Under the pieces are notes generated by a model. The model saw only the letters and a program-made list of their open reading frames with translations, was not told where the DNA came from and did not search any database. Positions 3,618-48,622 of a stretch of DNA of 64,000 nt are shown piece by piece (the first letter of the stretch is position 1; each line of letters begins with the position of its first letter). This DNA comes from a virus, in IMG/VR virus record IMGVR_UViG_3300046501_000246; one strand, 5' to 3'. The position numbers were made by a program, and so were the translations under genes.

Positions 3618-4091
3618 ATGACAAGAGACGAAGTTAAAGCGAATCGAATCAAGTGGGCCAATTTCCTTCTAAATAAAAAGAGGAAGAAAGCTATTAGTGT
3701 TCTTGATAAAGGCGACGGTGCTAGATGCTGCTTAGGTCATGGCGCGTATTGCTTAGGCGTGCCGCGCCGCAACATAGTTAATGGACTGGATAATGCGTGT
3801 TTCGAATATGGAGATGAGGACGCAGCATATTCCGCTCCTTCTGAATTGGTAGAGCTTGTCGGACTGTGGGACAGTGATGGCATGACTGAAGGCGAGGATT
3901 TAGTTATTAATGGTCTTAACTTTTCTTCATTAGCTGGTGCCAATGATGCTGATAGACATTATGCCTTTGAAACAGGCGTTGAAAGCAGCGAAATAAACAT
4001 CACTCCTCAAATGATTGGGACATATCTCCTCACCGTGATCGAAGGCGGCGATGACACTCCGTTTCGCCCACTGTCGGAGTACCCTGAATGA
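3618..4091 (+). CDS. hypothetical protein, CCLG-motif family (paralog of 9665-10006)
   Basis: W...L...DGARCCLG motif. Confidence 0.65.
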   Translation: MTRDEVKANRIKWANFLLNKKRKKAISVLDKGDGARCCLGHGAYCLGVPRRNIVNGLDNACFEYGDEDAAYSAPSELVELVGLWDSDGMTEGEDLVINGLNFSSLAGANDADRHYAFETGVESSEINITPQMIGTYLLTVIEGGDDTPFRPLSEYPE

Positions 4092-4541
4092 GCGCTGGTA
4101 AAGCATCGATTTGCCATTGGGATTTGAGGGCCAGATTCTTCACCAAAGAACAAGCCGTTAAAGCTATTAAACTTTTACTTGAGGAAGATATTGATTTCGA
4201 TATTGCGTATTCAGTTGAAATGGGTGATAGTCTGAATCGAACTGCTTATATCATCGATATTGACGGAATGTCTTGGGCCAATAATCTTGAAACCGTGGCA
4301 CAAATTTTAAAAGAAGTAGATCACAAATATGAATGAGTCTGAGCTACGCGAAAAGATTATTAAAGTTTTAGGACCAGAGCTATATGGCGCGTATGACTGC
4401 ATCCGAGTTTGGGAAGCTTGGTCATATGGTACGATGAGTCAGGATGATTTTGTTCCAGTTGAAGATCGGCTAGGCGAGATTGCTGAGAGCTTATTAAAGG
4501 AGATTTTGGGTGACAACTACGACGGGACTGACAGTAATTAG
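4088..4541 (+). CDS. two hypothetical proteins (4088-4336; 4329-4541)
   Basis: ORF track; overlapping start/stop junctions. Confidence 0.6.
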
Positions 4542-5526
4542 CGGCTTGCTTCCAACTCGTGGTCATCAATATCTAATTGATTTTGCATCTAAATTCGTTG
4601 ATCGACTCCACGTCATAGTCTGTATCAGATCGTTTGAGCCTCGTCTCACGCTGGATCGTGCCGAAGTTTTAGCAAAACATTATGCCGGTACGAATGTAAC
4701 AGTTCATGAGCATTACGCCGACGATGCGCCTCAAAATGACGATGGCACGACGGAGTTTTGGGACTATTGGGCCAATCTTGTAGATAAAGCCGTCACTAAA
4801 CGCAAAAAGATTGATTATTTCTTCGCCTCTGAAAAGTATGGCGCTCGATTTGCTGAAGCTCTTGGCGTCACTTTTGTTCCTGTCGATATTGGCAGGGAAA
4901 TCCTGAGCGTCACAGGAACGCGTGTGAGACAAAATCTCGCTGAGAATTTTAAATATATCCTCCCCGAATACCAAGGCAAATTGGCAAAAACGGTTTGCCT
5001 CTACGGACAAGAATCGGTAGGCAAAACCACAATGTCAAAGTGGCTCGCCACGAAGCTTGAAGGCCGTTGGATTCATGAATGGGCCAGACCTTATCTTGAA
5101 GAAGTCGGCGCTGAAGTCACGGATGAAAAAATGTTAAACATTGTGCGTGGTCAGTACGCTGTCATGGTTTCCGCACCTACTGCATTGTTTAATATAAGAG
5201 ATACTGATCTCCTTTCAACCATTGGATATTATAAAATCTACGGCGGTAAAATGCCTGAAGAACTTATCCAAAAATTTAACTTGACAAAAAGCGATCTTTA
5301 TGTAATGTTAAATGACAATATCCCTTTCGAGCCCGATCCTTTGAGATATGGCGGAGATAAGAGGGAAAGTGAGATGCAGTTCTGGATCGACCTTCTGGAC
5401 GAATATGACTGCAAATATCATGTCGTGGAAAGCACTGACATTAAGAAACAGCGCAAAGAAGTTGTAGAAGCTGTTTACGATTTTTTCACTGATCTACGAG
5501 AGATAGAGGAATTCATTCGTGACTGA
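4510..5526 (+). CDS. nadR: NadR-like NMN adenylyltransferase / ribosylnicotinamide kinase (no HTH)
   Basis: PTRGHQYLI (HxGH-like), PVDIGREILSVTGTRVR, Walker A GQESVGKTT, HEWARPYLE, DTDLLST, FEPDPLRYG. Confidence 0.85.
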   Translation: MTTTTGLTVISGLLPTRGHQYLIDFASKFVDRLHVIVCIRSFEPRLTLDRAEVLAKHYAGTNVTVHEHYADDAPQNDDGTTEFWDYWANLVDKAVTKRKKIDYFFASEKYGARFAEALGVTFVPVDIGREILSVTGTRVRQNLAENFKYILPEYQGKLAKTVCLYGQESVGKTTMSKWLATKLEGRWIHEWARPYLEEVGAEVTDEKMLNIVRGQYAVMVSAPTALFNIRDTDLLSTIGYYKIYGGKMPEELIQKFNLTKSDLYVMLNDNIPFEPDPLRYGGDKRESEMQFWIDLLDEYDCKYHVVESTDIKKQRKEVVEAVYDFFTDLREIEEFIRD

Positions 5527-29606: not shown

Positions 29607-30788
29607 ATGAATTACGAATTCCCTCGGATCGTTCACATTCAGCAAGCGCTTGATGCAATCAAAGGCGATGAAGACCTTTTCTACGTCGTGGAAAAAGATG
29701 GCTACACCGTCATTAACTACAAGCTGCCATGCAACAAGACATTTCCGCCTGTTGTAGATCGTAACACTGCGATTCGTAGGGAACTTCGTGGCATTAAGTT
29801 TGACAGCACAACGGGCGAGACTATATCTCGTGTTTACCATAAATTTTTCAATGCGGGAGAACGTGAAGAAACTCTTCTTCCCTCTATCGATATTTCAAAA
29901 ATCTATAATCGTTTGGAAAAGCTTGATGGGTCTATGGTTCATCCGTTACGAATCAGGGGTGCTCAACGTTGGGCCACCAAAATGGGTATTACTGATACCT
30001 CAATGCAAACCGAGAATTGGCTGGTCGCTAATCATTTTCAGGAAATTATTGAATTTTGCAACGAAGCTATGGATGACGGCTTTACTCCTATTTTTGAATG
30101 GTGCAGCCGTTTGAATAGAATTGTTGTGGATTATCCAGTAGATAGGCTTGTGCTGACTGCTGTTCGCCACACCTTTGATGGTTGGTACATGACCTACGAC
30201 GAAATGGTTAACTGTGACTCGGTAAAAGAATACGGCATCGAAGTTGTGAGCAAAAACGAAGCTCCCCTTCATTCTATGGCAGAATATGTTAATTTCATCT
30301 ACGAACTGAAGTCCGACGAAATGACTGAAGGTGAAGTCCTTCGCTTTCACGACGGCCACATGGTCAAGGTGAAGACGCAAGATTATATCAATCTTCACCG
30401 CACCAAGGATAAGATTCAGAAAGAAAGACACTTCGTCGCTATCCTCTTGGCTCAGCAACTAGACGATCTAAAGCCATTCATGCTAGCCGAAGATTTGGCT
30501 CGTGCAGAGGCTTACGAGATTCAATTAAACAAAAACATTGCAGAGCTTGGCAATACGCTGTTCGGTGAAGTCAACGCTATTTTGAAGCAGCGCCTTCCGC
30601 GTAAGGACTTCGCAATAAATTCAAAGGCTCCTCCATTGATTAAGTCCATCATTTTCCACCTATGGGATAAAGATTTTCCATTGGATGAGATGGAAGATGA
30701 AATAATGAACCGGCTCCGAGAGGCGTGTGAATCTGAGCAGAAATTTGAACGAGTCAAACCCTTAATCTTGAAAGGATGCGAGTGGTGA
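29607..30788 (+). CDS. RNA ligase 1 (T4 Rnl1-like)
   Basis: RELRGIKF, YHKFFN.GE, motif I EKLDGS, TPIFE, EGEVL, VKVKT.DY. Confidence 0.88.
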   Translation: MNYEFPRIVHIQQALDAIKGDEDLFYVVEKDGYTVINYKLPCNKTFPPVVDRNTAIRRELRGIKFDSTTGETISRVYHKFFNAGEREETLLPSIDISKIYNRLEKLDGSMVHPLRIRGAQRWATKMGITDTSMQTENWLVANHFQEIIEFCNEAMDDGFTPIFEWCSRLNRIVVDYPVDRLVLTAVRHTFDGWYMTYDEMVNCDSVKEYGIEVVSKNEAPLHSMAEYVNFIYELKSDEMTEGEVLRFHDGHMVKVKTQDYINLHRTKDKIQKERHFVAILLAQQLDDLKPFMLAEDLARAEAYEIQLNKNIAELGNTLFGEVNAILKQRLPRKDFAINSKAPPLIKSIIFHLWDKDFPLDEMEDEIMNRLREACESEQKFERVKPLILKGCEW

Positions 30789-31036
30789 AGAAGTTTATAA
30801 TCTTTGGTCTTATTGCTTTAGGTCTAACGTCTTGCGCCGAAGATGTTAAAGTGGGCGATTATGTATATGCTCGTAAGTTTAACGGTATGCTCAGCGACGA
30901 TACTGCTATATTTGGCAAAGTAGTGTCTAAGCAGGAGTGGGGCGTTCAGACAATTGTAGAGACTTGCAACGGAGAATTTTTCTTCATTGATAATGACAAA
31001 CTGTCTCTAGATATTTCCGGAAAGACTTGCAAATGA
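30785..31036 (+). CDS. lipoprotein paralog 1
   Basis: signal peptide with lipobox LTSC. Confidence 0.75.
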   Translation: MKKFIIFGLIALGLTSCAEDVKVGDYVYARKFNGMLSDDTAIFGKVVSKQEWGVQTIVETCNGEFFFIDNDKLSLDISGKTCK

Positions 31037-31257
31037 AAAACATTCTAGTTTTAGCAATCGTTGCTTTAGGTCTAACGTCCTGCATCGATAAGGGTGATTT
31101 TGTCTATGTCAGAAGCGCAGAAGGCCCAACTAATTTTGGTTACGTCGTAGGAATGAACCCTGATTCTTTAATCTTTGTAAAACTTTGTGACGGCACAGTG
31201 ATTAGCGCATCTAGCGGCTACATGGCTGAAGCCCCTGACGGGGAAGTATGCCCATGA
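31033..31257 (+). CDS. lipoprotein paralog 2
   Basis: signal peptide with lipobox LTSC. Confidence 0.75.
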   Translation: MKNILVLAIVALGLTSCIDKGDFVYVRSAEGPTNFGYVVGMNPDSLIFVKLCDGTVISASSGYMAEAPDGEVCP

Positions 31258-31490
31258 GCAGCACGGTTAAACTTTTAATCTTTGGCCTAATCACTTTAGG
31301 CCTCACATCTTGTGGTCCTGAAGTTGGACAGAATGTTTACGTCGGTGCTAAAGGCGGACCAACCCTTTTGGGAGTCGTTGTTGCTGGTGGATACAATAGG
31401 GATTTTTCTGTCGTGAGACTTTGCGATGGCCAAACTTTCTCCGTGAAGACTGACAATCTCATTGTCACTGACGAAGTCTGCTCCCAATGA
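31254..31490 (+). CDS. lipoprotein paralog 3
   Basis: signal peptide with lipobox LTSC. Confidence 0.75.
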   Translation: MSSTVKLLIFGLITLGLTSCGPEVGQNVYVGAKGGPTLLGVVVAGGYNRDFSVVRLCDGQTFSVKTDNLIVTDEVCSQ

Positions 31491-33041
31491 GTGAGTGCCA
31501 AGGTTGCGACACTTGCCCCTTCACTGAGACGGTCGAAACACTTCATTACGAAATACATGTCACTGTAGATCACCGTGAGACTTTCGTAGACGATTGCTAT
31601 GCCATAGGGGTTAAGCCTGTCATCATTGACATGGGCGACGATGTGCCTACTCATTCTATGACTAGCTCGACGTTAAAAGATTCAAATGACACTGCGGCAT
31701 TTGTCACGGCTCACTCCATCGCAAAAGCCTTGGAAGATATTGGTTACGACGTAGAACGTATCAAAATCGAAACGGTTCCATGGCACCCTAAAACTTCCAA
31801 CCCTGAGCCGGAACAATATTTTGAAACGCATTTCGCGTTCAAAGTTGAAGGCGACGGTTACATGCTTAACCAAATGCTTAAGATGGCGAAATGGCTTCAT
31901 CCTTCACGTAATCTCTTGAAGAAGGGTGAGGATAGAATTCAGATGGTCACTTACCGAAGGCATGACGTTGATTCTAAAACTTATTTAGAATCAATTGACG
32001 ATATGCAGAAGGTGTTTCTAGACAATCACTTAAAGCTCGACAAAGTGATTACAGAATTCGCCCTCTATGACACAAACGAAAGAATGGACGATCCGTGGTT
32101 AAGGTCCAGTTTTAAAAGAAGAAAAGATTAAAATGACTGAATATTTGTACAATCCTGATATGGCTCTTGTGGACCAGTTTGATTTCCTAAGAGATAACAT
32201 TCGCCCCACGGCTTATACAGATGCTGCAATTGCCGATGCGATGGAACGACTCTATGACGCCATCGTGCCAGTTATGCAGGGTTATCGCGACACGTTGGCC
32301 GAAGATGATCCCCTTGCGATCTATCTAAATTACTTCACCCGCACCGCCATTGATATTTTGGAGGATGAAAATGCTGAACCCGAACTTTATGCAACAGTAC
32401 CACTTGGAAGCGTCATTGAAGGGAAGTTCACTAAAATCCCTGCTCTGTCTACTGTTCGCATCACTGCTGCCTCCCCTCTTGGTGATGTTGGCGTCACTCG
32501 TAATCTATCAGCATCTCGTGGCTTTGAAACTCGCGTCTTTTGGGACAGCCTGACAGATTACCGCGTAACCGCTGAAAAGGAAATCAAAAATGAAGTCGAA
32601 TGAAGAAATCCGTGCCGCCTATTCGCAGTTCCGTTTAGATTATAACGATTATCTAAATTCAGAAGCCCCACAAGAAGAGAAGGAAGATATGTTCGAACTT
32701 CCCGTTGGTATTAATGTCATTTGGGCCAGTGGCGATGTTAATGCCGTGCCACTTGACCCTGCCGAACGCCGATATTTTACTTTCTTTGGAGCCTGATAAT
32801 GACTGAGACGCCTGTCACTGAAATTATTCTTGTAGATGCAGACACTTATGTAGGCATTTACGTCAACGGTGAACTTTATTTTTGGGGCGACCGTTACGAC
32901 CTAGATTTTGATTACGGCCTAGAGTTGGGCGCTGCCAATCCTGATTACAGTCTTACTTACAAAGATGTTGATTTTGAGTGGCTAGATGCAATCGGCGGCG
33001 GTAATATGCCTGAGAAATTGGAAGATGTTAAATTTGCCTAA
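31487..33041 (+). CDS. hypothetical proteins (31487-32131, 32133-32603, 32590-32796, 32799-33041)
   Basis: ORF track; tight packing. Confidence 0.65.
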
Positions 33042-33549
33042 GAAATTTTTGATCATGTTAGTCGGCTTACCCTGTACCGGCAAGTCCACGTTCCGCCAAA
33101 GATTGAAGCAAGACTTTGAATTCCTTACCATTTCCTCCGACGATTATATTGAATCGTGGGGCAGGGCGAAAGGAAAAACTTACAGCGAAGTGTTTCCCGA
33201 CTATGTCAAGGATGCTACTCACCGTATCGAAGAAGATGCACGTGTGGCTAAAATTAAAGAGCTTGACGTGGTTTGGGATCAAACTAACTTAACCGTTTCG
33301 AAGCGGAAGAAAATCCTTGACAAATTCGATAATTATGTTAAGATATGCGTACATTTTGAAATCGATGTTCATTTGGAATGGATGAGACGGTTGTACCGTA
33401 GGGCAGGAGAAGAAGGGAAGTATATTCCTTTTCACGTCTTGGAAAGTATGGACCGCTCCTCTGAATATCCACAATACTCAGAAGGTTTTGATTGGATCGT
33501 AGATGATGAAGATTTTCGTGCCGATTTTGTGAAGGAGTTAATTAAGTAA
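33034..33549 (+). CDS. P-loop kinase, Pnkp-kinase/AAA_33-like (start 33025 or 33034)
   Basis: VGLPCTGKSTF, ISSDD, VVWDQTNLT...R. Confidence 0.8.
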   Translation: MPKKFLIMLVGLPCTGKSTFRQRLKQDFEFLTISSDDYIESWGRAKGKTYSEVFPDYVKDATHRIEEDARVAKIKELDVVWDQTNLTVSKRKKILDKFDNYVKICVHFEIDVHLEWMRRLYRRAGEEGKYIPFHVLESMDRSSEYPQYSEGFDWIVDDEDFRADFVKELIK

Positions 33550-34094
33550 TGCCTAACGTTTACTTCACCAGTGATACCCACTTGGGCCATGCCAGAATTG
33601 TCACTATCGGCGCGGGTCGCCCCTTCAAAACCATTCAGGAACACGACGCCGAATTGATTAAGCGGTGGAACGAACGTGTCAAACCTGATGATGTTGTGTT
33701 CCATCTCGGAGATTTCAATTACAAGTCTTCTGTTGACGCTGATTTCTATCTGAAGCAACTCAACGGCAGGAAATTCCTTATCGTTGGAAACCACGACAAG
33801 CAAAAGACCATCACAGCTGATGGTTGGGAAGTTGCTCCGCTTCCGTACCAAGAGCTTGAACTGAATGGCATGCTGATCACACTTTGCCATTATCCCATCG
33901 AAGAGTGGAACGGCTATCACAAGGGCTCGTGGATGCTGCACGGCCATGTCCATGGCATGACGAAAACTGTTCCGATCAGGAAGAATAGAGTAGATGTAGG
34001 CGTTGATAATTTTAATTTTGCGCCTGCAACGTTTGAAGAAATTCAGGAGTTTAATAGAAAGGCTTTAAATGCCGAAGTACCTGCGTCAAGTTAA
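33549..34094 (+). CDS. calcineurin-like metallophosphoesterase
   Basis: FTSDTHLGH, HLGDF, VGNHD, LCHYP, LHGHVH. Confidence 0.88.
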   Translation: MPNVYFTSDTHLGHARIVTIGAGRPFKTIQEHDAELIKRWNERVKPDDVVFHLGDFNYKSSVDADFYLKQLNGRKFLIVGNHDKQKTITADGWEVAPLPYQELELNGMLITLCHYPIEEWNGYHKGSWMLHGHVHGMTKTVPIRKNRVDVGVDNFNFAPATFEEIQEFNRKALNAEVPASS

Positions 34095-35375: not shown

Positions 35376-35790
35376 CCGAGGCGTAAACTTTATTTGGCCC
35401 TTCGTGCGCCGCGAGAAATATGAAGACGCGCTGGCACGAAACAGGCAAATCAGCTTTGAATTATATCAAAGCCTAGAAAATTTGGAAGAGTTGGAAAAGT
35501 TTCAATTTACTAAAGGCCAACGATACCTCCCGTTTCCTGATTATGAATATTCGTTCAAGCATCAGGAAACGGGAGATGAGCGCCCCTTTACCCGAATAAG
35601 TTTAAGCGCCAAACCTCTTCAAAGTCATTATCATGTTGATACCTATCGATTAAATTTTGAAGAGAGTTCAGACTATATTAAAAATTTATTGATACGCCAA
35701 GCCGGTGAACTTTTCAGAAAAAAGGGAGAGGCTGATATGCGTCAAGTTATTGAAAGTTTATCCCAAAATGACGACAGGAAAATTTATTAA
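35251..35790 (+). CDS. hypothetical protein (true start unclear, probably near 35350-35390)
   Basis: ORF track; fills the gap before Rnl2. Confidence 0.5.
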   Translation: MIFGSMTIPITSYMDSLKMLKIFKTDPETVTPFGIWLAVRLNRGVNFIWPFVRREKYEDALARNRQISFELYQSLENLEELEKFQFTKGQRYLPFPDYEYSFKHQETGDERPFTRISLSAKPLQSHYHVDTYRLNFEESSDYIKNLLIRQAGELFRKKGEADMRQVIESLSQNDDRKIY

Positions 35791-36760
35791 ATTCCCTTCT
35801 ATCGAAGCGTTTTCAAGTGTTAATGCAACGGTTAAAAGACGTTTTGAACTTGACAATCGGCCAAAGGTGGTGTACCGTGGCAAAGTCAAACTTCACGGAA
35901 CGAACGCCGGAATTCGCGTCGATCCAGATGGCACAGTGACTTGCTTCAAGAGAACCGGAGTCTGCAACGTCGAGAACGATAATGCGGGATTTGCTAATTG
36001 GGTGGAGACTGTTAAAAAGCAGCTGTTCACGTTCGGCTTCAGTTATGTAATTTATGGTGAGTGGGCCGGTCCCGGAATCCAGAAGAAAGTAGCTGTATCT
36101 CAAATTGAGAAGAAAACGTTCTTTGTTTTCGCCATTTTAAATATGCACACGAATAAAATTGTGGTAGACCCGGATCGCATAAAGGCGTGCCTTGGTAAAG
36201 AAATTTTGCCATTCGAAATTATTCCTTGGGCTAAAGGAACTGACGTAGAGGTCGATTTCCGTCTTCAAAGTTCAATGGAAGCCGCGACCAAAAACATTTC
36301 TTCTTGGGTAGAAGAATGTGACAAGGTTGATCCTTATATTAAAGAGCGTTACGGGATTGAAGGCATTGGCGAAGGGTATGTTTTTATTCCTCTAGTTGAT
36401 GAGATGTCATTCGATGTTTACAGCGATTACATTTTCAAGGCTAAAGGTGAAAGTCATCACGTCTCATCTTCGGAGAAGAAGGTTTCGATCCAAATCGATC
36501 CAGCCGTGTTAGAAGGTGCAGCGGCTTTTGCCAAGGAGTTTGTTACTCAAGGTCGCTGCGAACAAGGCGTAACTGAAGCTTGCGGCGGGGAAGCCGTGAT
36601 GAAGAATATGGGCGCTTTCATGAAGTGGATCGGCCAAGACGTGCAGAAAGAATCCGTTAATGAGTTGGAAGCTTCTGGCCTAGATTGGAAGAACGTTTCT
36701 AAAGCCGTAAACCAACAAGCGAGAGATTGGTATATCCTCGCAACTGAGAGGAATTTATAA
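35768..36760 (+). CDS. RNA ligase 2 family (Rnl2-like)
   Basis: KFPSIE, motif I KVKLHGTNAG, IYGEWAGPGIQK, FVFAI, EGYV, FKAKG. Confidence 0.8.
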   Translation: MTTGKFIKFPSIEAFSSVNATVKRRFELDNRPKVVYRGKVKLHGTNAGIRVDPDGTVTCFKRTGVCNVENDNAGFANWVETVKKQLFTFGFSYVIYGEWAGPGIQKKVAVSQIEKKTFFVFAILNMHTNKIVVDPDRIKACLGKEILPFEIIPWAKGTDVEVDFRLQSSMEAATKNISSWVEECDKVDPYIKERYGIEGIGEGYVFIPLVDEMSFDVYSDYIFKAKGESHHVSSSEKKVSIQIDPAVLEGAAAFAKEFVTQGRCEQGVTEACGGEAVMKNMGAFMKWIGQDVQKESVNELEASGLDWKNVSKAVNQQARDWYILATERNL

Positions 36761-37629
36761 TGTCTAATGAGTCTTTTAATGATTACGTACTTTTTGATCT
36801 CGAAACCTTGAATCAAGTTCATGGTAGCGACTTTTATAACATTTCTTATGTACCGCCTTCACCCGAAGTAGTTCGTGAGGCAGGCGAACTTAACGCTCTC
36901 GATAATGATTATGCAGTTGTAGGGGATAAGTTCTACGACGCCCTAGCCGGTGAAATTGAAGTAATTTTTGTTTCTGAGTTTGGCCAGATCGTTGCTAAAT
37001 TTAGTGACGGCTCTATCTCGCTGTTTGAAAGTGTAGAAGATATTGAGGATGACGGTTTTGTCAAGATTATGGAAACTGATGGCTGGATCAACGTGATTCG
37101 CGACACAGATTTCAACGATATTTTCTTTGACGAAGGCGTTTATGTCACGAAGGATGACGCCGTAAATGCTTTCGAAGACACTAGGTTGTCGTCTTGGGAA
37201 CTGCTTGATACGACTTACATCTCGTGGAGCAATATTAAGAATGACTGACAAACCAGAGATTTGGGTAAGTCACGGCAATACGGAAAGTGGCGATCCCATC
37301 GCCATTCTCCTTTGGCCCAAGATGCCACTTCGTAGCGAAGTAAAGAAAGTTTATATGGAGCTTTATCCTGATGAGTACGAAGAAGTTGGCCAAGTTTACT
37401 TCGATATCGAACTAGCAAGTTGGGGAAATAAATAATGAGATACGAAGATAGAATCATTATCTTAAAGGGAATTCGAGATTTACTTGACGATGCCATAGAT
37501 ATGCACGAGACTAAAATGTATTCTCAAGAGGGTAGAGAATTTGTTGTTGCATTATATGAACAGGCTGACAAAAATATCGAAATTGCAAAAGAATTTTTGA
37601 ATACGTTGGAGCCTTGGGACGCGCTATGA
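36760..37629 (+). CDS. hypothetical proteins (acidic 36760-37248; 37241-37435; 37435-37629)
   Basis: ORF track; TAATG/ATGA junctions. Confidence 0.6.
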
Positions 37630-37886
37630 GCAAAGCAAAAATCGGCTATCATCTCACCGAAATCAAGAAGGGCGTCTTGGGTCAAAGCTCAAAGATTTTA
37701 GAAGAAATTCTTGAACTTCAGGATGCGGAACGACAGGGCTGTAGGGTTATGGCCCTTGTTGAATTATCTGACATGGTAGGCGCGATTCAGGCTTACCTAG
37801 ACAACAAGTATCCCGATATGAATCTTGCCGATCTAATGATAATGGCAGGAATTACGAAGCGAGCTTTTGATAATGGCCGAAGATGA
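37626..37886 (+). CDS. small MazG-like all-alpha NTP pyrophosphatase-fold protein
   Basis: GYH...KG.LG..SKILEE..E..DA...LVELSD (EExxE / ExxD pattern). Confidence 0.55.
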   Translation: MSKAKIGYHLTEIKKGVLGQSSKILEEILELQDAERQGCRVMALVELSDMVGAIQAYLDNKYPDMNLADLMIMAGITKRAFDNGRR

Positions 37887-38049
37887 TGAAGATTACCAGC
37901 GCGTAAGAGAATTACTATTGGAACAGTTGCGCCATCTGGACCAAGAATATAAAATGCGGGCCAGACCAATTATAGATAAACTTGCGCAGCTTGAAGCTTA
38001 TCGACCTTGTTCATTTTTAAGAGAGTTGTCATGGAAGACGATAACCTGA
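37873..38049 (+). CDS. hypothetical protein
   Basis: ORF track. Confidence 0.5.
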   Translation: MAEDDEDYQRVRELLLEQLRHLDQEYKMRARPIIDKLAQLEAYRPCSFLRELSWKTIT

Positions 38050-38582
38050 TCCGGTACGACTTAATCGCCGAAGCTTTAGATTATTACAAATCAAAAGGTT
38101 ACGTGGAGATTAATGTTCCTTGGCATGTCAGACCCGAAATTTCGGCGCTGACTTGCCCAAGTCCCGACAGAGCCTATCCATTTGAGGATGGCGTCTTTGT
38201 CGGCTCGGCTGAACAATCTATGATCCAAATGGCTGTGGATGGCGAGCTAGTTGAAGGCGGATATTATGTTTCTTGCTCGCCATGTTTCAGGAATGAGCCT
38301 GTCTTAGATCAACTCCACCAAAAATATTTTATGAAGGTCGAACTGTTTCATTTCGGAACAGACCAAGACCCTTACAACAAAATCCGCAGAGACGCCTACA
38401 ACTTCTTTAGAACTTTAACTAATAAAACTATTTATTGGACGTTCGAAAACGAGTCTGAGACAGATACGGATTTCGAAATCGACGGTGTCGAAATCGGCTC
38501 ATACAATTATCGAACCGGCTTAGGCATTACGTGGACTTGTGGTACTGGCCTCGCATTGCCGAGATTTACGAAGGTGATGTGA
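38031..38582 (+). CDS. stand-alone class II aminoacyl-tRNA-synthetase-like catalytic core (SerRS-like)
   Basis: motif 1 EINVP, GSAEQ, motif 2 SPCFRNE...HQKYFMKVEL, EIGSY, motif 3 CGTGLALPRF; only about 184 aa. Confidence 0.7.
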   Translation: MEDDNLIRYDLIAEALDYYKSKGYVEINVPWHVRPEISALTCPSPDRAYPFEDGVFVGSAEQSMIQMAVDGELVEGGYYVSCSPCFRNEPVLDQLHQKYFMKVELFHFGTDQDPYNKIRRDAYNFFRTLTNKTIYWTFENESETDTDFEIDGVEIGSYNYRTGLGITWTCGTGLALPRFTKVM

Positions 38583-42570: not shown

Positions 42571-42967
42571 ATGTTCTCGGACTATAAGATTGAAGGTGAA
42601 GGCGGCGAAAGTCGCCTTCATTTTTCCGTTAGGGAAGAGTTGAGAAAGCAGATACTTAGGGCCTCTGCCAAATTTATAAGGCCACGGCTTGACTTTGTTT
42701 ATAACGAAAAAACTCATATGCTGACATATACTATCACAGAAACGGCACATTTAAATGACGAAGAAAAGAAATGTTTACGTATGGGTGGATAGACCCACCG
42801 CAACCGTCATCGTCCATAAGAATATATCATCATTCTTAGATTTTGAAGGACGATTGACAGTTGAATACAATTTCTACAAAGAAGCGCAGTGGGGCGCTGA
42901 CAAGTACGACAAAGCAGTTTATCCCGCTGGCACTTATCTCAGGTACGAAGTTAGATACGAGGAGTAA
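42571..42967 (+). CDS. two hypothetical proteins (42571-42792; about 42755-42967)
   Basis: ORF track. Confidence 0.5.
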
Positions 42968-42971
42968 AAAA

Positions 42972-43973
42972 GTGAAACAATTGATTCGTCTTGAATTTGG
43001 CTCATCGCTTTACGGGACGCGCACTCCTGAAAGCGACACTGATTATAAGGGCGTTCACGTTCCGGAAGCTCGCGATTTGATTATGCAAGACGCGGCTCGT
43101 GTTATCTCCAATTCAACCGGTAGTGATAAGACGAAGAACACTAAAGAAGATGTAGACGACGAAAGTTTCTCTCTCCTGAAGTTCTTCGACATGCTGAAGA
43201 AGGGCGATATGGTGGCCCAAGAGTTGCTTCATGTTCCTTTCGACAAAGCTATTACCGTTTCCTCGGAATGGAAAGACCTGATCATCCCTAATCGCCACAA
43301 GCTTGTGGCTCGCGATATTAAGGGCTTTGTAGGATATATCAGGACGCAGTCAAACCGCTACGGGATTCGAGGCTCGCGTGTCGCCACGGCTCGCAACGCG
43401 ACGGACCTGTTCTCATTTTGGGTCGCGAGTTATGGCGCTAACACCAAGATCAAAGACGTTCCCATGTTCCACGAAGAGCTTGAGCGTTTCATCGTAGTCA
43501 ATGAGCATTCCCAATTCGTTGAGATGCCTGTGGCTAAAGGTTCGACCGAGACAGTCGAATATTTCGAAGCGATTAACCGCAAGGTTGGCTACACCATTGC
43601 TTTGAAAGAGGCTCACGCGATCTACAAGCGTAGTTTCGATGAGTATGGCTCTAGGGCGCTCATGGCGGAACAGAATGAAGGTGTGGACTGGAAAGCATTG
43701 TATCACGCCATACGGGTCTCTGAGCAGGCCATGGAGCTACTTCAAACAGGTGAAATCACTTTCCCGCGTCACAATGCTACTGAGCTTCTAACGATTAAGC
43801 GTGGCGAACATCCCTACAAAGATATTGCCTCTCAGTTAGAAGATAACCTTGACAAATTAGAAAAATTAATGTTAGTATCTGATTTGCCAGAGAAGGTAGA
43901 TGAAAATTTTATGGACGAAGTTGTTCATGATCTTCACCTCAACGAGATTTACGAAGAGTATTTTCATCTGTAA
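42972..43973 (+). CDS. Pol-beta superfamily nucleotidyltransferase (RlaP-like)
   Basis: FGSSLYGTRTPESDTDYKGV, KALYHAIR, LL.IKRGE; GTG start. Confidence 0.8.
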   Translation: MKQLIRLEFGSSLYGTRTPESDTDYKGVHVPEARDLIMQDAARVISNSTGSDKTKNTKEDVDDESFSLLKFFDMLKKGDMVAQELLHVPFDKAITVSSEWKDLIIPNRHKLVARDIKGFVGYIRTQSNRYGIRGSRVATARNATDLFSFWVASYGANTKIKDVPMFHEELERFIVVNEHSQFVEMPVAKGSTETVEYFEAINRKVGYTIALKEAHAIYKRSFDEYGSRALMAEQNEGVDWKALYHAIRVSEQAMELLQTGEITFPRHNATELLTIKRGEHPYKDIASQLEDNLDKLEKLMLVSDLPEKVDENFMDEVVHDLHLNEIYEEYFHL

Positions 43974-46608: not shown

Positions 46609-47892
46609 ATGGACCTTTCTTCGATTACTACTGTAGCAGAATCGCAGTTTCATATTTGGCTACAGTCTCAGCTTAAAAACGATTTCCTCATTGCTGGTAT
46701 TGGCACGGTAGCGCTTTCAGGAATTATGTACACTCTGAAAAGCATTCCCGGCAAGATTTGGAACGCGGTATATCATCGCTCCACCATTACGATCAATGTC
46801 TTCAGTGACAACGATAATTTCGTTGACGTTGTCACTGAATTTAATAAAAACACTATCAATTTCCTGTCCCGCCAAAATATTTTGGACGGGGATAAGATGA
46901 GTGTTGGACTAGGCACGTCTTGGACCAGATTTCGCGGCCACATCGTTAAGCTGGAGCGTCAAAAAGAAAAGTCAGACAGCAAAGATTTCAAGCAAGACCT
47001 GACTGTCACGCATTTTTTCACGTCGAAGAAAAAAGTATTAAAGCTTTATGAAGACTTCTTTGAAGAGAAGAAGGCGAAAAATAAAGATAAAATTAAAATC
47101 TACAGCCTGACCAAGGATTGGGTTCAGCATCTGAAAGATATGCCGAAGCGTAACAGAGACGGCGTATTTATTGATCCAGACATTCTTGTGCATATCGAAA
47201 AAAGAATTAAATTCTTTCAAGATAATAGAACTTGGTATGAGGATCGCGGCATCCCTTATAAATATGCCATCCTTCTCCATGGTGTTCCCGGTACGGGAAA
47301 AACCACGCTCGCCAAATATATCGCTTCGATTACGAACCGTCACGTTGTCATGGTTAGCCCGACTCGCTTGCCGGGGCTAGCGCTAGCGCTAAACGGTATT
47401 TATGATCCAGACGACAGGCAGGAGCATGAACGCGCTTCTTATCTAGGAATCATGGAAGATATTGATTGCGACAACATCACGGCTAAACGTGACGAAGCGC
47501 CGGATGATGACGATGATGACGACAACAAAGTTACGGGAAGCAACGGCGAAGAGTTTAGTCTGATCTCCTTGGCCGACCTCCTTAACGCAATCGACGGCAT
47601 TAATGCGCCTGAGAATTTCATCCTTGTCGCGACAACCAATCACTTAGGTAAGCTCGATCCTGCTCTTTTCAGGAAGGGCCGGTTTGACGACGTGATTGAA
47701 ATTAAGCCGCTCGAAACGCCTGAGATTATCCGCATGGTTAAGTTCTTTTTTGAAAGACAGGACGCGGAAGGTTTTGCCAAGGAGTACGGACCGATCCCCG
47801 GCGCTGTGCTACAAGACATTATCCTGCAATATTATGACGATGGCGTTGATAAAGTTATTGAGGTTTTGAATGAAGAATTTAGCAGAGTTTGA
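46609..47892 (+). CDS. BCS1-like membrane-anchored AAA+ ATPase
   Basis: N-terminal TM; WY..RGIPYK..ILLHGVPGTGKT, MEDID, LLNAIDG, TTNH..KLDPAL.R.GRFD. Confidence 0.85.
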   Translation: MDLSSITTVAESQFHIWLQSQLKNDFLIAGIGTVALSGIMYTLKSIPGKIWNAVYHRSTITINVFSDNDNFVDVVTEFNKNTINFLSRQNILDGDKMSVGLGTSWTRFRGHIVKLERQKEKSDSKDFKQDLTVTHFFTSKKKVLKLYEDFFEEKKAKNKDKIKIYSLTKDWVQHLKDMPKRNRDGVFIDPDILVHIEKRIKFFQDNRTWYEDRGIPYKYAILLHGVPGTGKTTLAKYIASITNRHVVMVSPTRLPGLALALNGIYDPDDRQEHERASYLGIMEDIDCDNITAKRDEAPDDDDDDDNKVTGSNGEEFSLISLADLLNAIDGINAPENFILVATTNHLGKLDPALFRKGRFDDVIEIKPLETPEIIRMVKFFFERQDAEGFAKEYGPIPGAVLQDIILQYYDDGVDKVIEVLNEEFSRV

Positions 47893-48622
47893 TTATCTAA
47901 AAAAGCTGGAAGACAGTGTCGAGACTTATATCCCGGCTGATCAATATATGGTGGCCCGTTTAGATGGTCACGGCTTCCACAATTTCACCAAAGGCTTGAA
48001 GCGCCCATTTGATGGAACGCTTCGCGAGACAATGGCGGATGTAACAAAGCTGCTGATGGAACGCTATGGAGCGACTGAAAGCTATACGCAGTCCGATGAA
48101 ATCACTTTGATCTGGCATCCCCGCATGAACCGTAACGGTACTGGTTGGGTAGAGCATCCACATTCGGGCCGTGTCATGAAGCTCGCAACTCTCATGGCAA
48201 GTTTTTGCTCCACAGAATTTTATAAATTAATTCAAGGATATAAGGTCACAAACTATAACGGCTTCGACTGCCGCGTCTACGGAGGAATGGAGAATGTTGC
48301 GATAGACAGTAAGAGATTTAGGTTCATTGACTGCGCCACGAACGCGTATCAACAAGTCGCGCAATCGTTGTGGAGCCAGAAACAGTTAAACGGTGTCAGC
48401 ATTCAGCAAATCAAAACGATGCTTAGCGAGAAAAACATTAATGTTTGGCAAGCCTATGGCGATGACGCAATGTTAGGTGTTTATTTTTATAAAGAAGAAG
48501 TTATTGTCCCTAGTGAACGAACATATAATCTTTTTGGTCACGAGGCTAAAATTATAAACAAAACAGGTCGTTACAGAATCGTTAGATCAAACGGTGCTGA
48601 AATGATGCGGAGATTAAAATAA
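47870..48622 (+). CDS. thg1: tRNA(His) guanylyltransferase Thg1/TLP family 3'-5' polymerase
   Basis: ARLDGHGFHNFTK...PFD, YTQSDEITL, FDCR, DC..NA. Confidence 0.85.
   Translation: MKNLAEFDYLKKLEDSVETYIPADQYMVARLDGHGFHNFTKGLKRPFDGTLRETMADVTKLLMERYGATESYTQSDEITLIWHPRMNRNGTGWVEHPHSGRVMKLATLMASFCSTEFYKLIQGYKVTNYNGFDCRVYGGMENVAIDSKRFRFIDCATNAYQQVAQSLWSQKQLNGVSIQQIKTMLSEKNINVWQAYGDDAMLGVYFYKEEVIVPSERTYNLFGHEAKIINKTGRYRIVRSNGAEMMRRLK

Follow-up and report, generated by a model that had tools for sequence, protein, structure and literature searches.

A minimal seryl-tRNA synthetase-like core paired with a MazG-like protein in large tRNA-rich phages: a candidate two-part enzyme with an unknown acceptor

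Large tRNA-rich phages, and a few microbes with tiny genomes, carry a seryl-tRNA synthetase (SerRS) core that almost always adjoins, or is fused to, a MazG/HisE-type partner, and the pair looks like an uncharacterised two-part enzyme for which the acceptor of the activated serine is unknown. We describe the pair in a 64,000-nucleotide stretch of viral DNA, IMG/VR record IMGVR_UViG_3300046501_000246 (the window), and in its relatives. We think it very probable that the two proteins are functionally coupled as a Ser-AMP ligase and an NTP-pyrophosphatase; our preferred reading, that they form one two-part seryl-adenylate ligase acting on tRNA or RNA 3′ ends, with both activities inferred, is tentative and held at less than even confidence, and a free-nucleotide product is almost as likely as a tRNA or RNA acceptor. 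In the literature we found no paper characterising the core family or its pairing with a MazG-like protein, fusions included. The genes concerned are:

37626..37886, + strand: MazG/HisE-like all-alpha NTP pyrophosphohydrolase-like protein, 86 aa (phrog_6408, E 2.7e-36)
37867..38049, + strand: small helical ORF overlapping the ends of both pair genes (no Pfam or PHROG match)
38031..38582, + strand: minimal SerRS-like class II aminoacyl-tRNA synthetase (aaRS) catalytic core, 183 aa (phrog_4806, E 6.3e-44)

An earlier note had placed all three here, and the placement, on the plus strand, holds.

A stripped-down SerRS catalytic core

The core is 183 aa long from an ATG at 38031, or 191 aa from a TTG at 38007, in a family of 166-200 aa; its nearest homologues in isolate phages are at most 38% identical, and megablast of the locus against isolate phages gave no match. 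The SerRS-like class II motifs 1-3 quoted in the earlier note are present in the translation, and across 64 homologues, down to 34% identity, S59, E61, Q62, P84, C85, R87, F100, K102, and E104 are invariant in the N-terminal half and D147, E154, G156, S157, Y158, G171, T172, G173, A175, P177, and R178 in the C-terminal half. Judged by this invariance across sequences, the motif matches are not due to chance. The motif 2 and motif 3 arginines, whose conservation had been singled out for checking, are R87 and R178, both invariant; E89 is conserved in at least 90%; the proline of a VPW in motif 1 aligns in 8 of the 8 sequences compared, and the dimer-interface element of motif 1 is kept. Conserved basic residues are confined to the active site.

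Alignment with a 431-aa SerRS (L090, positions 3798-5090) reveals what has been kept and what is missing. Specifically, i) E61, C85, F86, R87, F100, K102, E104, E154, G156, S157, T172, A175, and R178 are kept, and the serine/adenylate positions S59/E61, E104, E154/S157, and T172, invariant in the 64 cores, are the same in the aligned SerRS save for a conservative T-to-S change; ii) the N-terminal arm, the C-terminal tail, and a 6-residue piece of the motif 2 loop are missing from the core, as are three further insertions of about 16, 6, and 22 residues; iii) the core begins only about 10 residues ahead of motif 1; and iv) the coiled-coil arm domain (Seryl_tRNA_N, PF02403) is matched by the control SerRS (E 7e-26) but not by the core. 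S59/E61, R87/E89, F100, E104, E154/S157, T172, and R178 align with the positions that bind serine, ATP, and Mg in the Thermus thermophilus SerRS structures. In SerRS, the N-terminal coiled-coil arm binds the variable arm of tRNA-Ser and the motif 2 loop touches the acceptor stem. The core reaches no Pfam aaRS threshold, tRNA-synt_2b included, its sole match being to PF00152 (E 0.035; 13.6 bits, where 25 would be needed), and no relatives longer than 321 aa were found, hence no fusions with a classical tRNA-binding domain, which is weak evidence.

The proposed class II fold is supported by an AF2 model (pLDDT 95.3) that superposes on solved class II synthetases, with an antiparallel beta-sheet core and flanking helices (Foldseek E 2e-10, TM 0.75). 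VIA-align matched 181-182 of the 183 residues to SerRS catalytic domains at Z 20.4-18 and rmsd 2.3-2.9 Å; over SerRS, PylRS, HisRS, and HisZ together, Z was 17-20 over 173-182 residues, with HisRS and HisZ (Z 18.6-17.4) lower than the top SerRS matches. When the family profile was compared with the PDB, SerRS chains ranked first (E 2.3e-6; SerRS range 2e-6 to 2e-2), followed by AspRS, PylRS, LysRS, and AsnRS, whereas neither HisRS nor HisZ was listed at an E of 1 or less. "Histidyl tRNA synthetase", as the core is called in PHROG and GenBank, thus looks like a misnomer, since the profile matches SerRS and no HisRS. Database names for the core are inconsistent, being either histidyl- or seryl-tRNA synthetase. 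A single-sequence PDB search with the core returned only spurious thioredoxin matches around the CxxC-like "SPCF", and was superseded by the profile search.

The pocket resembles that of bacterial-type SerRS, not that of LysRS or of the zinc-dependent methanogen-type SerRS. The catalytic domain of bacterial-type SerRS shares its fold with the whole of the 183-aa protein, along with motifs 1-3 and the residues at the serine, ATP, and Mg positions, but it comes with an arm, a tail, and a longer motif 2 loop, all of which the core lacks, whereas the core has a MazG-like partner. We conclude that the gene encodes a pared-down SerRS catalytic core in which all serine and ATP positions are retained.

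The MazG-like partner and the small ORF

The MazG-like gene starts at an ATG at 37626 that overlaps the stop of the upstream ORF (ATGA) and gives 86 aa; a TTG further upstream, at 37614, would give 90 aa. Invariant in 37 homologues are Y8, H9, I13, G16, K23, E26, E27, E30, E46, D49, T77, and G84, which include the EExxE (E26, E27, E30) and ExxD (E46, D49) patterns that the earlier note had picked out; both patterns are also invariant in 25 cupin-fused forms. The protein has an N-terminal GYH and a C-terminal T-K/R-R-A-F..G.R, and its AF2 model (pLDDT 94.3) has three helices, with the acidic motifs on the adjacent helices H21-37 and H40-61. All the metal-binding acidic residues of a MazG/HisE-type enzyme are retained.

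Fold and family matches are weak. The top Foldseek rows were Escherichia coli MazG and HisE (best E 0.75, probability 0.84; range E 0.75-5), the best that its profile picked up in the PDB was a MazG-type protein from Sulfolobus (E 0.11), and Pfam PRA-PH and MazG matched the MazG-like proteins at E 0.007-0.1, under cut-offs; Atlas neighbours of the protein carry the PRA-PH and MazG families. The closest folds and families of the 86-aa protein would thus be MazG and HisE, below curated thresholds, and NTP hydrolysis is inferred only. MazG, HisE, and DCTPP1 share with it the EExxE...ExxD on consecutive helices; unlike them, it has only three helices in 80-90 aa and a family-specific GYH N-terminus and TKRAF..G.R tail. 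Both proteins of the pair are acidic (median pI 5.1).

The helical ORF that the earlier note had seen between the two genes is present (58 aa from an ATG at 37873, or 60 aa from a TTG at 37867), but it is restricted: homologues were found in the same position only in the five closest contigs, L002-L006 (jackhmmer E 1e-38 to 7e-20) and are absent from the other 75 loci. It is lineage-specific, lies outside the widely conserved pair, and has no assigned role.

Co-occurrence and fusion of the two genes

The prediction that the two genes would co-occur beyond close relatives was fulfilled. They occur together and in the same orientation in 78 of 81 viral loci (77 by jackhmmer and L015 by HMM; most commonly with a 4-nt overlap) and in 12 of 14 loci from species genomes. 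Isolate phages yielded 276 core and 269 MazG-like records with the same host breakdown, and in 5 of 5 records tested both genes were present or both missing. The 276 isolate phage genomes with the core include E. coli, Acinetobacter, Klebsiella, and Caulobacter phages, and the core also occurs in 151 tblastn-confirmed IMG/VR stretches. The complete 164-kb phage L029, which has the core and no MazG-like gene, counts against our preferred reading.

Natural fusions of the core and the MazG-like domain occur in both orders, accounting for 26 of 120 longer MazG-like proteins, and are found in Microcystis phages and DPANN archaea; when the two are fused, the motif 3 arginine and the GYH of the MazG-like domain are no more than 7-16 residues apart. 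Fusion of the MazG-like domain to a cupin-like metal-site domain, with the core gene following, is also seen in at least 25 protein clusters, and precomputed Pfam marks on other MazG-like fusions name a nucleoside deoxyribosyltransferase-like family and a methyltransferase. Pfam gave no match for the extra fused domains, nor did a PDB profile search with the cupin-fused form. Further domains without assignment are also fused to the MazG-like domain. A divergent core hidden in the long MazG-like forms was ruled out for four of them by hhalign.

No third conserved neighbour could be found, no family besides the MazG-like one occurring in more than 9-10 of 81 loci, and this bears on aminoacylation of a protein or carrier protein, as by EpmA/PoxA on EF-P or by amino acid:carrier-protein ligases. 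The latter are about 300 aa long, derive from the zinc-dependent methanogen-type SerRS, and adjoin carrier-protein genes; Mocibob et al. are said to have described such SerRS-derived ligases in 2010. They resemble the core in being SerRS-like with the tRNA-binding domain gone, but the core is smaller (170-200 aa), has a bacterial-type pocket, and lacks a conserved carrier gene; none was among the Foldseek and VIA-align rows shown for the core, an absence that cannot rule them out. Truncated class II paralogues with protein-directed roles do exist, and the carrier-protein ligases themselves have SerRS-like cores that lost the tRNA-binding domain and kept adenylation (PMC9437257). The small ORF between the two genes in this phage lineage speaks for such a role, but it is limited to five close relatives; the pair has no conserved third gene, carrier-protein-like or otherwise, the pocket is neither LysRS-like nor of the methanogen type, and the role of the MazG-like protein would be left unexplained. 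We therefore regard a protein acceptor as highly improbable.

Another conceivable role is that of a dedicated Ap4N synthase in which Ser-AMP would be an intermediate only and the MazG-like domain would present a second NTP, through its Mg-triphosphate site, to attack the adenylate, yielding RNA 5′ caps or alarmones. That several class II synthetases make Ap4A from an enzyme-bound aminoacyl-adenylate, as a side reaction, is established. Such a synthase would account for the kept serine and ATP sites, for the loss of the tRNA-binding parts, and for an obligatory triphosphate-binding domain 7-16 residues past the motif 3 arginine, and a NUDIX gene is a conserved neighbour of the Saccharibacteria copies. 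It is nevertheless very unlikely on present evidence, being purely inferential, and we know of no MazG-type protein that serves as an NTP presenter instead of a hydrolase.

Genomic context

The pair in the window lies within what its predicted genes mark as a tRNA-repair island:

29607-30788, + strand: T4 Rnl1-type RNA ligase (PF09511, E 6.6e-25)
32986-33549, + strand: P-loop kinase (PF13671, E 1.6e-16)
33549-34094, + strand: calcineurin-like phosphoesterase (PF00149, E 1.1e-7)
35705..36760, + strand: second RNA ligase, PF09414 family (PF09414, E 3.8e-13; phrog_548 "RNA ligase", E 4.9e-52)
42861..43973, + strand: RlaP-family Pol-beta nucleotidyltransferase, RNA 3′-end repair (PF10127, E 2.5e-13)
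47870..48622, + strand: Thg1-like 3′-5′ nucleotidyltransferase, tRNA 5′-end repair/maturation family (PF04446, E 1.1e-25)

The Rnl1-type ligase, kinase, and phosphoesterase (29607..34094) are, by their family assignments, an RNA end-healing and sealing set; like the other genes listed, they are context and lie outside the pair. In 10 of 81 loci the pair has, no more than 8 kb away, a homologue of RlaP, a family whose biochemistry has been described (bioRxiv 10.64898/2025.12.29.696909); RlaP is also near the pair in rV5-like, CR3, and Acinetobacter T4-like phages. Specific co-occurrence of RlaP or Thg1-like genes with the pair was rejected, these families having 1534 and 146 phage records with host breakdowns that differ from that of the pair.

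Other contexts also point towards tRNA. In a phi92-like phage, a YqeY-like gene lies directly 3′ of the core (PF09424, E 4.6e-7), and in CcrColossus an alpha-CTD-like HhH domain is fused to it (PF03118, E 3e-6). At 24 of 60 loci there are tRNA genes no further than 8 kb from the pair (suggestive only, there being no within-genome baseline), and in L008, L010, L012, and L040 it sits amid arrays of 19-23 tRNAs. Each of the 45 carrier contigs tested encodes tRNAs (median 34), compared with a median of 9 in 25 large RlaP-positive phages that are non-carriers; the density is 10.8 versus 5.3 tRNAs per 100 kb (p 0.004), with a control that is small and phylogenetically clumped. The genes beside the cellular copies have roles in translation: those in Saccharibacteria adjoin the rpsL-rpsG/fusA region, and those in DPANN adjoin serS, TruD, or aRF1. 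The earlier note had judged canonical tRNA charging unlikely; the arm is indeed absent, but because the genomic context points towards tRNA the question is not settled.

One DPANN copy is one gene from serS, and the motif 1 dimer-interface element is retained, as might be expected of a non-catalytic or regulatory protein that heterodimerises with host SerRS (like SLIMP with mitochondrial SerRS) or senses serine or ATP (like HisZ), for which SLIMP and HisZ are precedents (PMC9437257). We find such a role barely credible: serS adjacency was seen in that locus only, and catalysis is favoured over binding alone because the catalytic positions are all invariant from E. coli phages to archaea.

In other phages, the neighbours of the pair are ribonucleotide reductase (RNR), glutaredoxin, and kinase genes, and its neighbours at large include thymidine kinase and a P-loop kinase. 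These neighbours lend themselves to a nucleotide or small-molecule pathway, in which Ser-AMP would seryl-modify a free nucleotide or some other small amine or alcohol and the MazG-like enzyme would convert a triphosphate form to a monophosphate, the product being a modified nucleotide, cofactor, or signal. The model is HisE acting on phosphoribosyl-ATP after HisG/HisZ: there, a class II aaRS-like protein and a small all-alpha pyrophosphohydrolase, the latter acting on a modified ATP, belong to one pathway, and the fold matches of the core and of the MazG-like protein include structures of HisZ and HisE, respectively. HisZ, however, has lost adenylation and is HisRS-like, whereas the core has a SerRS-like profile and no HisG is present. 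Obligate coupling, fusions included, to an NTP pyrophosphatase-like protein that keeps its invariant catalytic acids argues for this pathway, as do the cupin-like fusions (at least 25 clusters), the deoxyribosyltransferase-like and methyltransferase marks, the NUDIX gene, the absence of an RNA-binding domain from most members, and the acidity of the proteins. All characterised MazG/HisE-type enzymes known to us act on free nucleotides. AsnA and MshC are aaRS paralogues that make small molecules (PMC9437257), and a survey of jumbo phages mentions MazG-like enzymes only as possible cleaners of the nucleotide pool (PMC7824862). Yet neither an acceptor candidate nor a further pathway enzyme is conserved with the pair, and the tRNA-linked contexts are left unexplained; a nucleotide pathway is thus a serious, if somewhat unlikely, contender. 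Also against it, no DNA or nucleotide modification has, to our knowledge, been described for the many isolate phages carrying the pair.

A possible mechanism

In our preferred reading, the two genes would encode one two-part enzyme, a single chain in some lineages. The core would form seryl-adenylate from L-serine and ATP; the seryl group would then be transferred to the last ribose at the 3′ end of an RNA, most likely a tRNA, as part of the equipment with which large tRNA-rich phages supply and repair tRNA; and, in the weakest of these inferred steps, the MazG-like subunit, near the nucleotide site, would hydrolyse or position a reaction-linked nucleoside triphosphate, which might be a triphosphate end or a by-product, for instance Ap4N. 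RNA might be bound in trans, through lineage-specific add-ons (the YqeY-like protein or the HhH alpha-CTD-like domain) or by dimerisation with host SerRS; in SerRS the arm works across the dimer. The retained active-site residues, the SerRS fold, the strict coupling, and the tRNA-linked context support this reading. GluQRS (YadB), a truncated GluRS that glutamylates queuosine in tRNA-Asp (PMC9437257), shows by precedent that an aaRS core can act on tRNA even when it has no anticodon-binding domain, but GluQRS is class I and has no nucleotide pyrophosphatase partner, whereas the core is class II and has no known modified-base target.

Several points stand against an RNA acceptor: i) about 95% of the family has no RNA-binding domain, the proteins are acidic, and basic residues are conserved only in the active site; ii) the motif 2 loop is 6 residues shorter than in SerRS; iii) the fusions of the MazG-like domain to cupin-like and other domains look more like small-molecule metabolism; iv) the neighbours include RNR, glutaredoxin, and kinase genes, and RlaP and Thg1-like genes do not track the pair; v) nothing in tRNA charging explains the need for a MazG/HisE-type partner; and vi) among known truncated aaRS paralogues (listed in PMC9437257), those that act on tRNA are a minority. 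Among the three hypotheses of the earlier note (a modified nucleotide or signal, an aminoacylated protein, and recharging of repaired tRNA), the evidence cannot choose, except that the protein acceptor is without support.

Significance

Whatever the acceptor, the pair is a clear two-protein system to test, and the core (166-200 residues) would be the smallest natural class II synthetase-type enzyme with a complete amino-acid and ATP site, none smaller being known to us; its size bears on the minimum protein needed for amino-acid activation. Were the pair a composite enzyme with two adjoining nucleotide sites and an unknown serine-dependent nucleotide product (a dinucleoside polyphosphate or a serylated nucleotide), which we consider quite unlikely, it would represent a new biochemical use of an aaRS core, making a signal, RNA cap, or counter-defence metabolite in large phages and a few CPR/DPANN symbionts. 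With tRNA as its acceptor, the pair would be a new element in the ways phages repair and supply tRNA; with a nucleotide, it would define a new metabolite or signal pathway common to phages and ultra-small symbionts.

The SerRS-like core and its MazG-like partner

Three overlapping or abutting ORFs lie within a single long + strand gene train of phage-like content; no close DNA-level relative of the locus could be found among 50,697 isolate phage records.

37626-37886, + strand: MazG-like gene, 86 aa; start codon (ATG) overlapping the stop codon of the ORF before it
37867-38049, + strand: small ORF of 58-60 aa between the pair
38031-38582, + strand: SerRS-like core, 183 aa

In Pfam the core gives only a below-threshold class II match (PF00152, E 0.035), and in PHROGs it falls into phrog_4806 (E 6e-44), where the family is named 'histidyl tRNA synthetase'. 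A search of 5.8 billion proteins returned 170 relatives at E <=0.001; the 120 listed range from 127 to 318 aa (most 166-230 aa), and twenty positions are invariant across 64 relatives down to 34% identity. Public labels for the family conflict ('histidyl tRNA synthetase', 'putative seryl-tRNA synthetase', 'aspartyl/asparaginyl-tRNA synthetase', 'hypothetical protein'), and the evidence supports a SerRS-like rather than a HisRS-like family. Specifically, i) SerRS chains rank first when a profile of the core alignment is run against the PDB (E 2.3e-6 to 1e-4), ahead of AspRS and PylRS, and no HisRS appears in the same search, leaving the 'histidyl' name unsupported; ii) Foldseek matches the AlphaFold2 model (pLDDT 95.3) to PylRS and SerRS catalytic domains (E 2e-10); and iii) on re-ranking by VIA-align the nine best entries are all SerRS (Z 20.4-18.6), superposing 181-182 of the 183 residues at an rmsd of 2.3-2.9 A.

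Aligned with a genuine 431-aa SerRS (PF02403 and PF00587) from L090, a DPANN archaeal contig, the core lacks both the N-terminal arm and the C-terminal tail, its motif 2 loop is six residues shorter, and three more insertions are missing. Common to the core family and this SerRS are E61, C85, F86, R87, F100, K102, E104, E154, G156, S157, T172, A175, and R178, which, by reference to the Thermus thermophilus SerRS structures, we take to include the TxE loop, the Arg and Glu of motif 2, the Phe that stacks on adenine, the Glu and Thr holding the hydroxyl of serine, the metal-binding Glu and Ser, and the Arg of motif 3. These shared residues, with the roles so assigned, argue for a seryl-adenylate site that is predicted from sequence to be intact. 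The earlier note had described 38031-38582 as a class II, SerRS-like protein that keeps motifs 1-3 and lacks the coiled-coil tRNA-binding arm, and on each point it is borne out; the motif 2 and 3 arginines (R87 and R178) are invariant. We regard as firmly supported that the core is a minimal SerRS-derived protein whose adenylation site is intact in sequence; the seryl acceptor is not established.

The 86-aa protein belongs to phrog_6408, of unknown function. The acids of the EExxE and ExxD pattern, by which it had originally been picked out, are invariant in 37 homologues; K23, a GYH at the N-terminus, and parts of a TKRAF..G.R tail at the C-terminus are invariant too. Its model (pLDDT 94.3) has an extended N-terminus followed by three helices, and the folds that it matches best are those of E. 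coli MazG, several HisE proteins, M. tuberculosis MazG, and DCTPP1, all with the weak scores expected of a short helical protein. A Sulfolobus MazG-type protein matches the profile at E 0.11, and several members give weak Pfam PRA-PH or MazG matches, in both cases below curated thresholds; the Atlas neighbours, which carry these two families, point in this direction as well. Of the two proteins the MazG-like one is the more strongly conserved, being 54% identical to its counterpart in a phi92-like coliphage versus about 34% for the core.

Pairing, distribution, and fusion

Among isolate phage records the core occurs in 276 and the MazG-like protein in 269, with a near-identical breakdown by host genus (Escherichia 112/113, Acinetobacter 61/59, Caulobacter 13/13, Pectobacterium 10/10, Cronobacter 8/8, Brevundimonas 7/7). 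In a neighbourhood sample of 80 IMG/VR loci plus the window, the MazG-like gene adjoins the core in 77 of 81, always on the same strand, and an HMM scan added L015; a 4-nt overlap is the commonest spacing, and the order is reversed in about 15 loci. The gene is absent from L029, a complete 164-kb genome, and from L034, and none was counted in L061, which is cut by the contig end. When same-strand neighbours were clustered, none of the remaining families exceeded 9 loci. The expectation that the two genes would co-occur beyond close relatives is thus met. All five records tested for the two genes have both or neither. A complete IMG/VR contig of 184,940 bp (G354), whose RlaP nucleotidyltransferase is 73% identical to that of the window, lacks both, which fits a pair that is gained or lost together.

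The great majority of occurrences are viral: only 14 prokaryotic loci were found (one genome each from 185,579 species), some of them clearly cellular. Four Saccharibacteria or related genomes (L084, L086, L091, L095) carry it at one shared chromosomal site, flanked by a NUDIX gene/fusA and by rpsG-rpsL-rpoC and lying on the opposite strand, with an AAA_28-type P-loop kinase just upstream in the last two; 9 of 301 genomes of this class have the pair. In two DPANN archaeal contigs (L087 and L090) core and MazG-like domain are fused, in that order, among housekeeping genes: serS, an XPD-type helicase, adenylate kinase, and TruD in one, aRF1 and thioredoxin reductase in the other. Both loci have a divergently transcribed neighbour of about 285 aa (40% identical) without a Pfam family, and the fusion gene of L087 overlaps at its end with a radical-SAM gene.

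L087:5008-5862, minus strand: DPANN fusion locus
L090:5084-5956, minus strand: DPANN fusion locus

Microcystis phage MaMV-DC ORF129L has the same order (hhalign probability 97.8%, E 8e-13), another protein (P0097) has the reverse, and the core is present in 26 of 120 longer proteins bearing the MazG-like domain. Both motifs could be placed in 13 fused proteins, and in these the motif 3 arginine is only 7-16 residues (median 10) away from the MazG-like GYH; we infer that the two nucleotide sites lie near each other in the folded protein. We consider it firmly supported that the core is coupled in function, and probably by physical contact, to a MazG/HisE-like protein that its invariant acids predict to be catalytically intact and whose hydrolysed substrate is not established, and that the pair is a mobile two-gene unit.

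Other domains have been added to either partner. At least 25 protein clusters have an extra domain of about 190 aa N-terminal to the MazG-like one, marked by conserved H.H...H and Cys motifs (FGLGF.Q.K, H.HRY, a later H, and CPF in the alignment of these fusions); this domain is phage-specific, occurs in many jumbo-phage contigs, matches no Pfam family or PDB sequence, and bears only a weak resemblance to cupins in its Atlas model. The MazG-like protein of Acinetobacter T4-like phages continues at its C-terminus into an unassigned domain of about 125 aa. An N-terminal extension of about 85 aa, similar to that of CcrColossus gp133, occurs on the core of Brevundimonas phage Kikimora (P0096) and metagenome relatives of 264-269 aa, and in a phi92-like coliphage a YqeY-like gene (PF09424, E 4.6e-7) directly follows the core.

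L016:7172-7999: ~190-aa domain plus MazG-like, directly preceding the core gene
L007:7067-8014: the same
L031:7106-8011: the same
L050:7189-7998: the same
L105:4342-4965: Acinetobacter phage Konradin gp118, MazG-like then ~125-aa domain; the core gene overlaps its end
L106:5248-6102: Caulobacter phage CcrColossus gp133, core with N-terminal RNA-polymerase alpha-CTD-like helix-hairpin-helix domain (PF03118, E 3e-6)

Possible seryl acceptors

The surroundings of the pair in the window are a tRNA/RNA-repair island.

29607-30788: T4 Rnl1-type ligase
32986-33549: P-loop kinase
33549-34094: calcineurin-like phosphoesterase
35705-36760: second RNA ligase (PF09414)
42861-43973: RlaP nucleotidyltransferase
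47870-48622: Thg1-like enzyme (3'-5' polymerase)

The repair set is unusually complete, kinase and phosphoesterase forming a split end-healing pair. RlaP adds nucleotides to damaged RNA 3' ends (bioRxiv 10.64898/2025.12.29.696909); its gene is no more than 8 kb from the pair in 10 of 81 loci and is also nearby in rV5-like, CR3, and Acinetobacter phages. ARAGORN found no tRNA genes in the 64-kb window. Elsewhere, 24 of 60 loci have tRNA genes at a distance of 8 kb or less from the pair; in several loci one is its immediate neighbour, and in L008, L010, L012, and L040 the pair lies inside arrays of 19-23 such genes. All 45 carrier contigs tested have tRNA genes (median 34); the median is 9 in 25 large RlaP-positive contigs without the pair, and densities are 10.8 versus 5.3 per 100 kb (Mann-Whitney p 0.004; size-matched p 0.008). 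Since the control set is small and dominated by T4-like phages, we regard this richness as supportive but not decisive. The tRNA arrays of three carrier phages include CTA-anticodon genes (reading UAG; labelled 'Pyl' by ARAGORN), which could point to amber suppression or stop-codon recoding.

L008:1989-2062: CTA-anticodon tRNA
L031:1120-1276: CTA-anticodon tRNA
L052:13016-13090: CTA-anticodon tRNA

Given the repair island, the tRNA arrays and tRNA-rich genomes, the YqeY and helix-hairpin-helix additions, and the translation-gene neighbourhoods, we rank first, tentatively and at somewhat less than even odds, an RNA or tRNA 3' end as the seryl acceptor. Some of the context points elsewhere: RlaP and Thg1-like genes have a far wider or different distribution; ribonucleotide reductase genes and a helicase neighbour the pair in phi92-like and Phapecoctavirus phages, as do glutaredoxins in XacN1 and Acinetobacter phages; both proteins are acidic (median pI about 5.1); and no recognisable nucleic-acid-binding region is present in some 95% of cores. 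The second reading, a product that is a free nucleotide or small molecule, is possible if doubtful; the kind of partner and the cupin-like fusions of the MazG-like domain speak for it. The core might also be a dedicated Ap4N-type synthase, which we rank third and think unlikely, or might aminoacylate a protein or carrier, a fourth and decidedly improbable reading: the family does not meet the definition of a carrier ligase, having no carrier gene and a bacterial-type pocket. A regulatory role ranks last, with very little probability.

Recognised SerRS paralogues comprise albomycin-resistant SerRS2, SLIMP, and the amino acid:carrier-protein ligases (PMC9437257), and the core family is none of these; nor, in the absence of the arm, does it meet the definition of a SerRS. 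It is like the truncated paralogues GluQRS, EpmA, and AsnA in working principle, and the nearest analogy is HisZ/HisG-HisE, in which a class II fold works with a small all-alpha pyrophosphatase. No paper was found on the activity of the core family or on its pairing with the MazG-like protein. We conclude that the pair is real and widespread and looks like an uncharacterised two-component enzyme within the aaRS-derived ligases.
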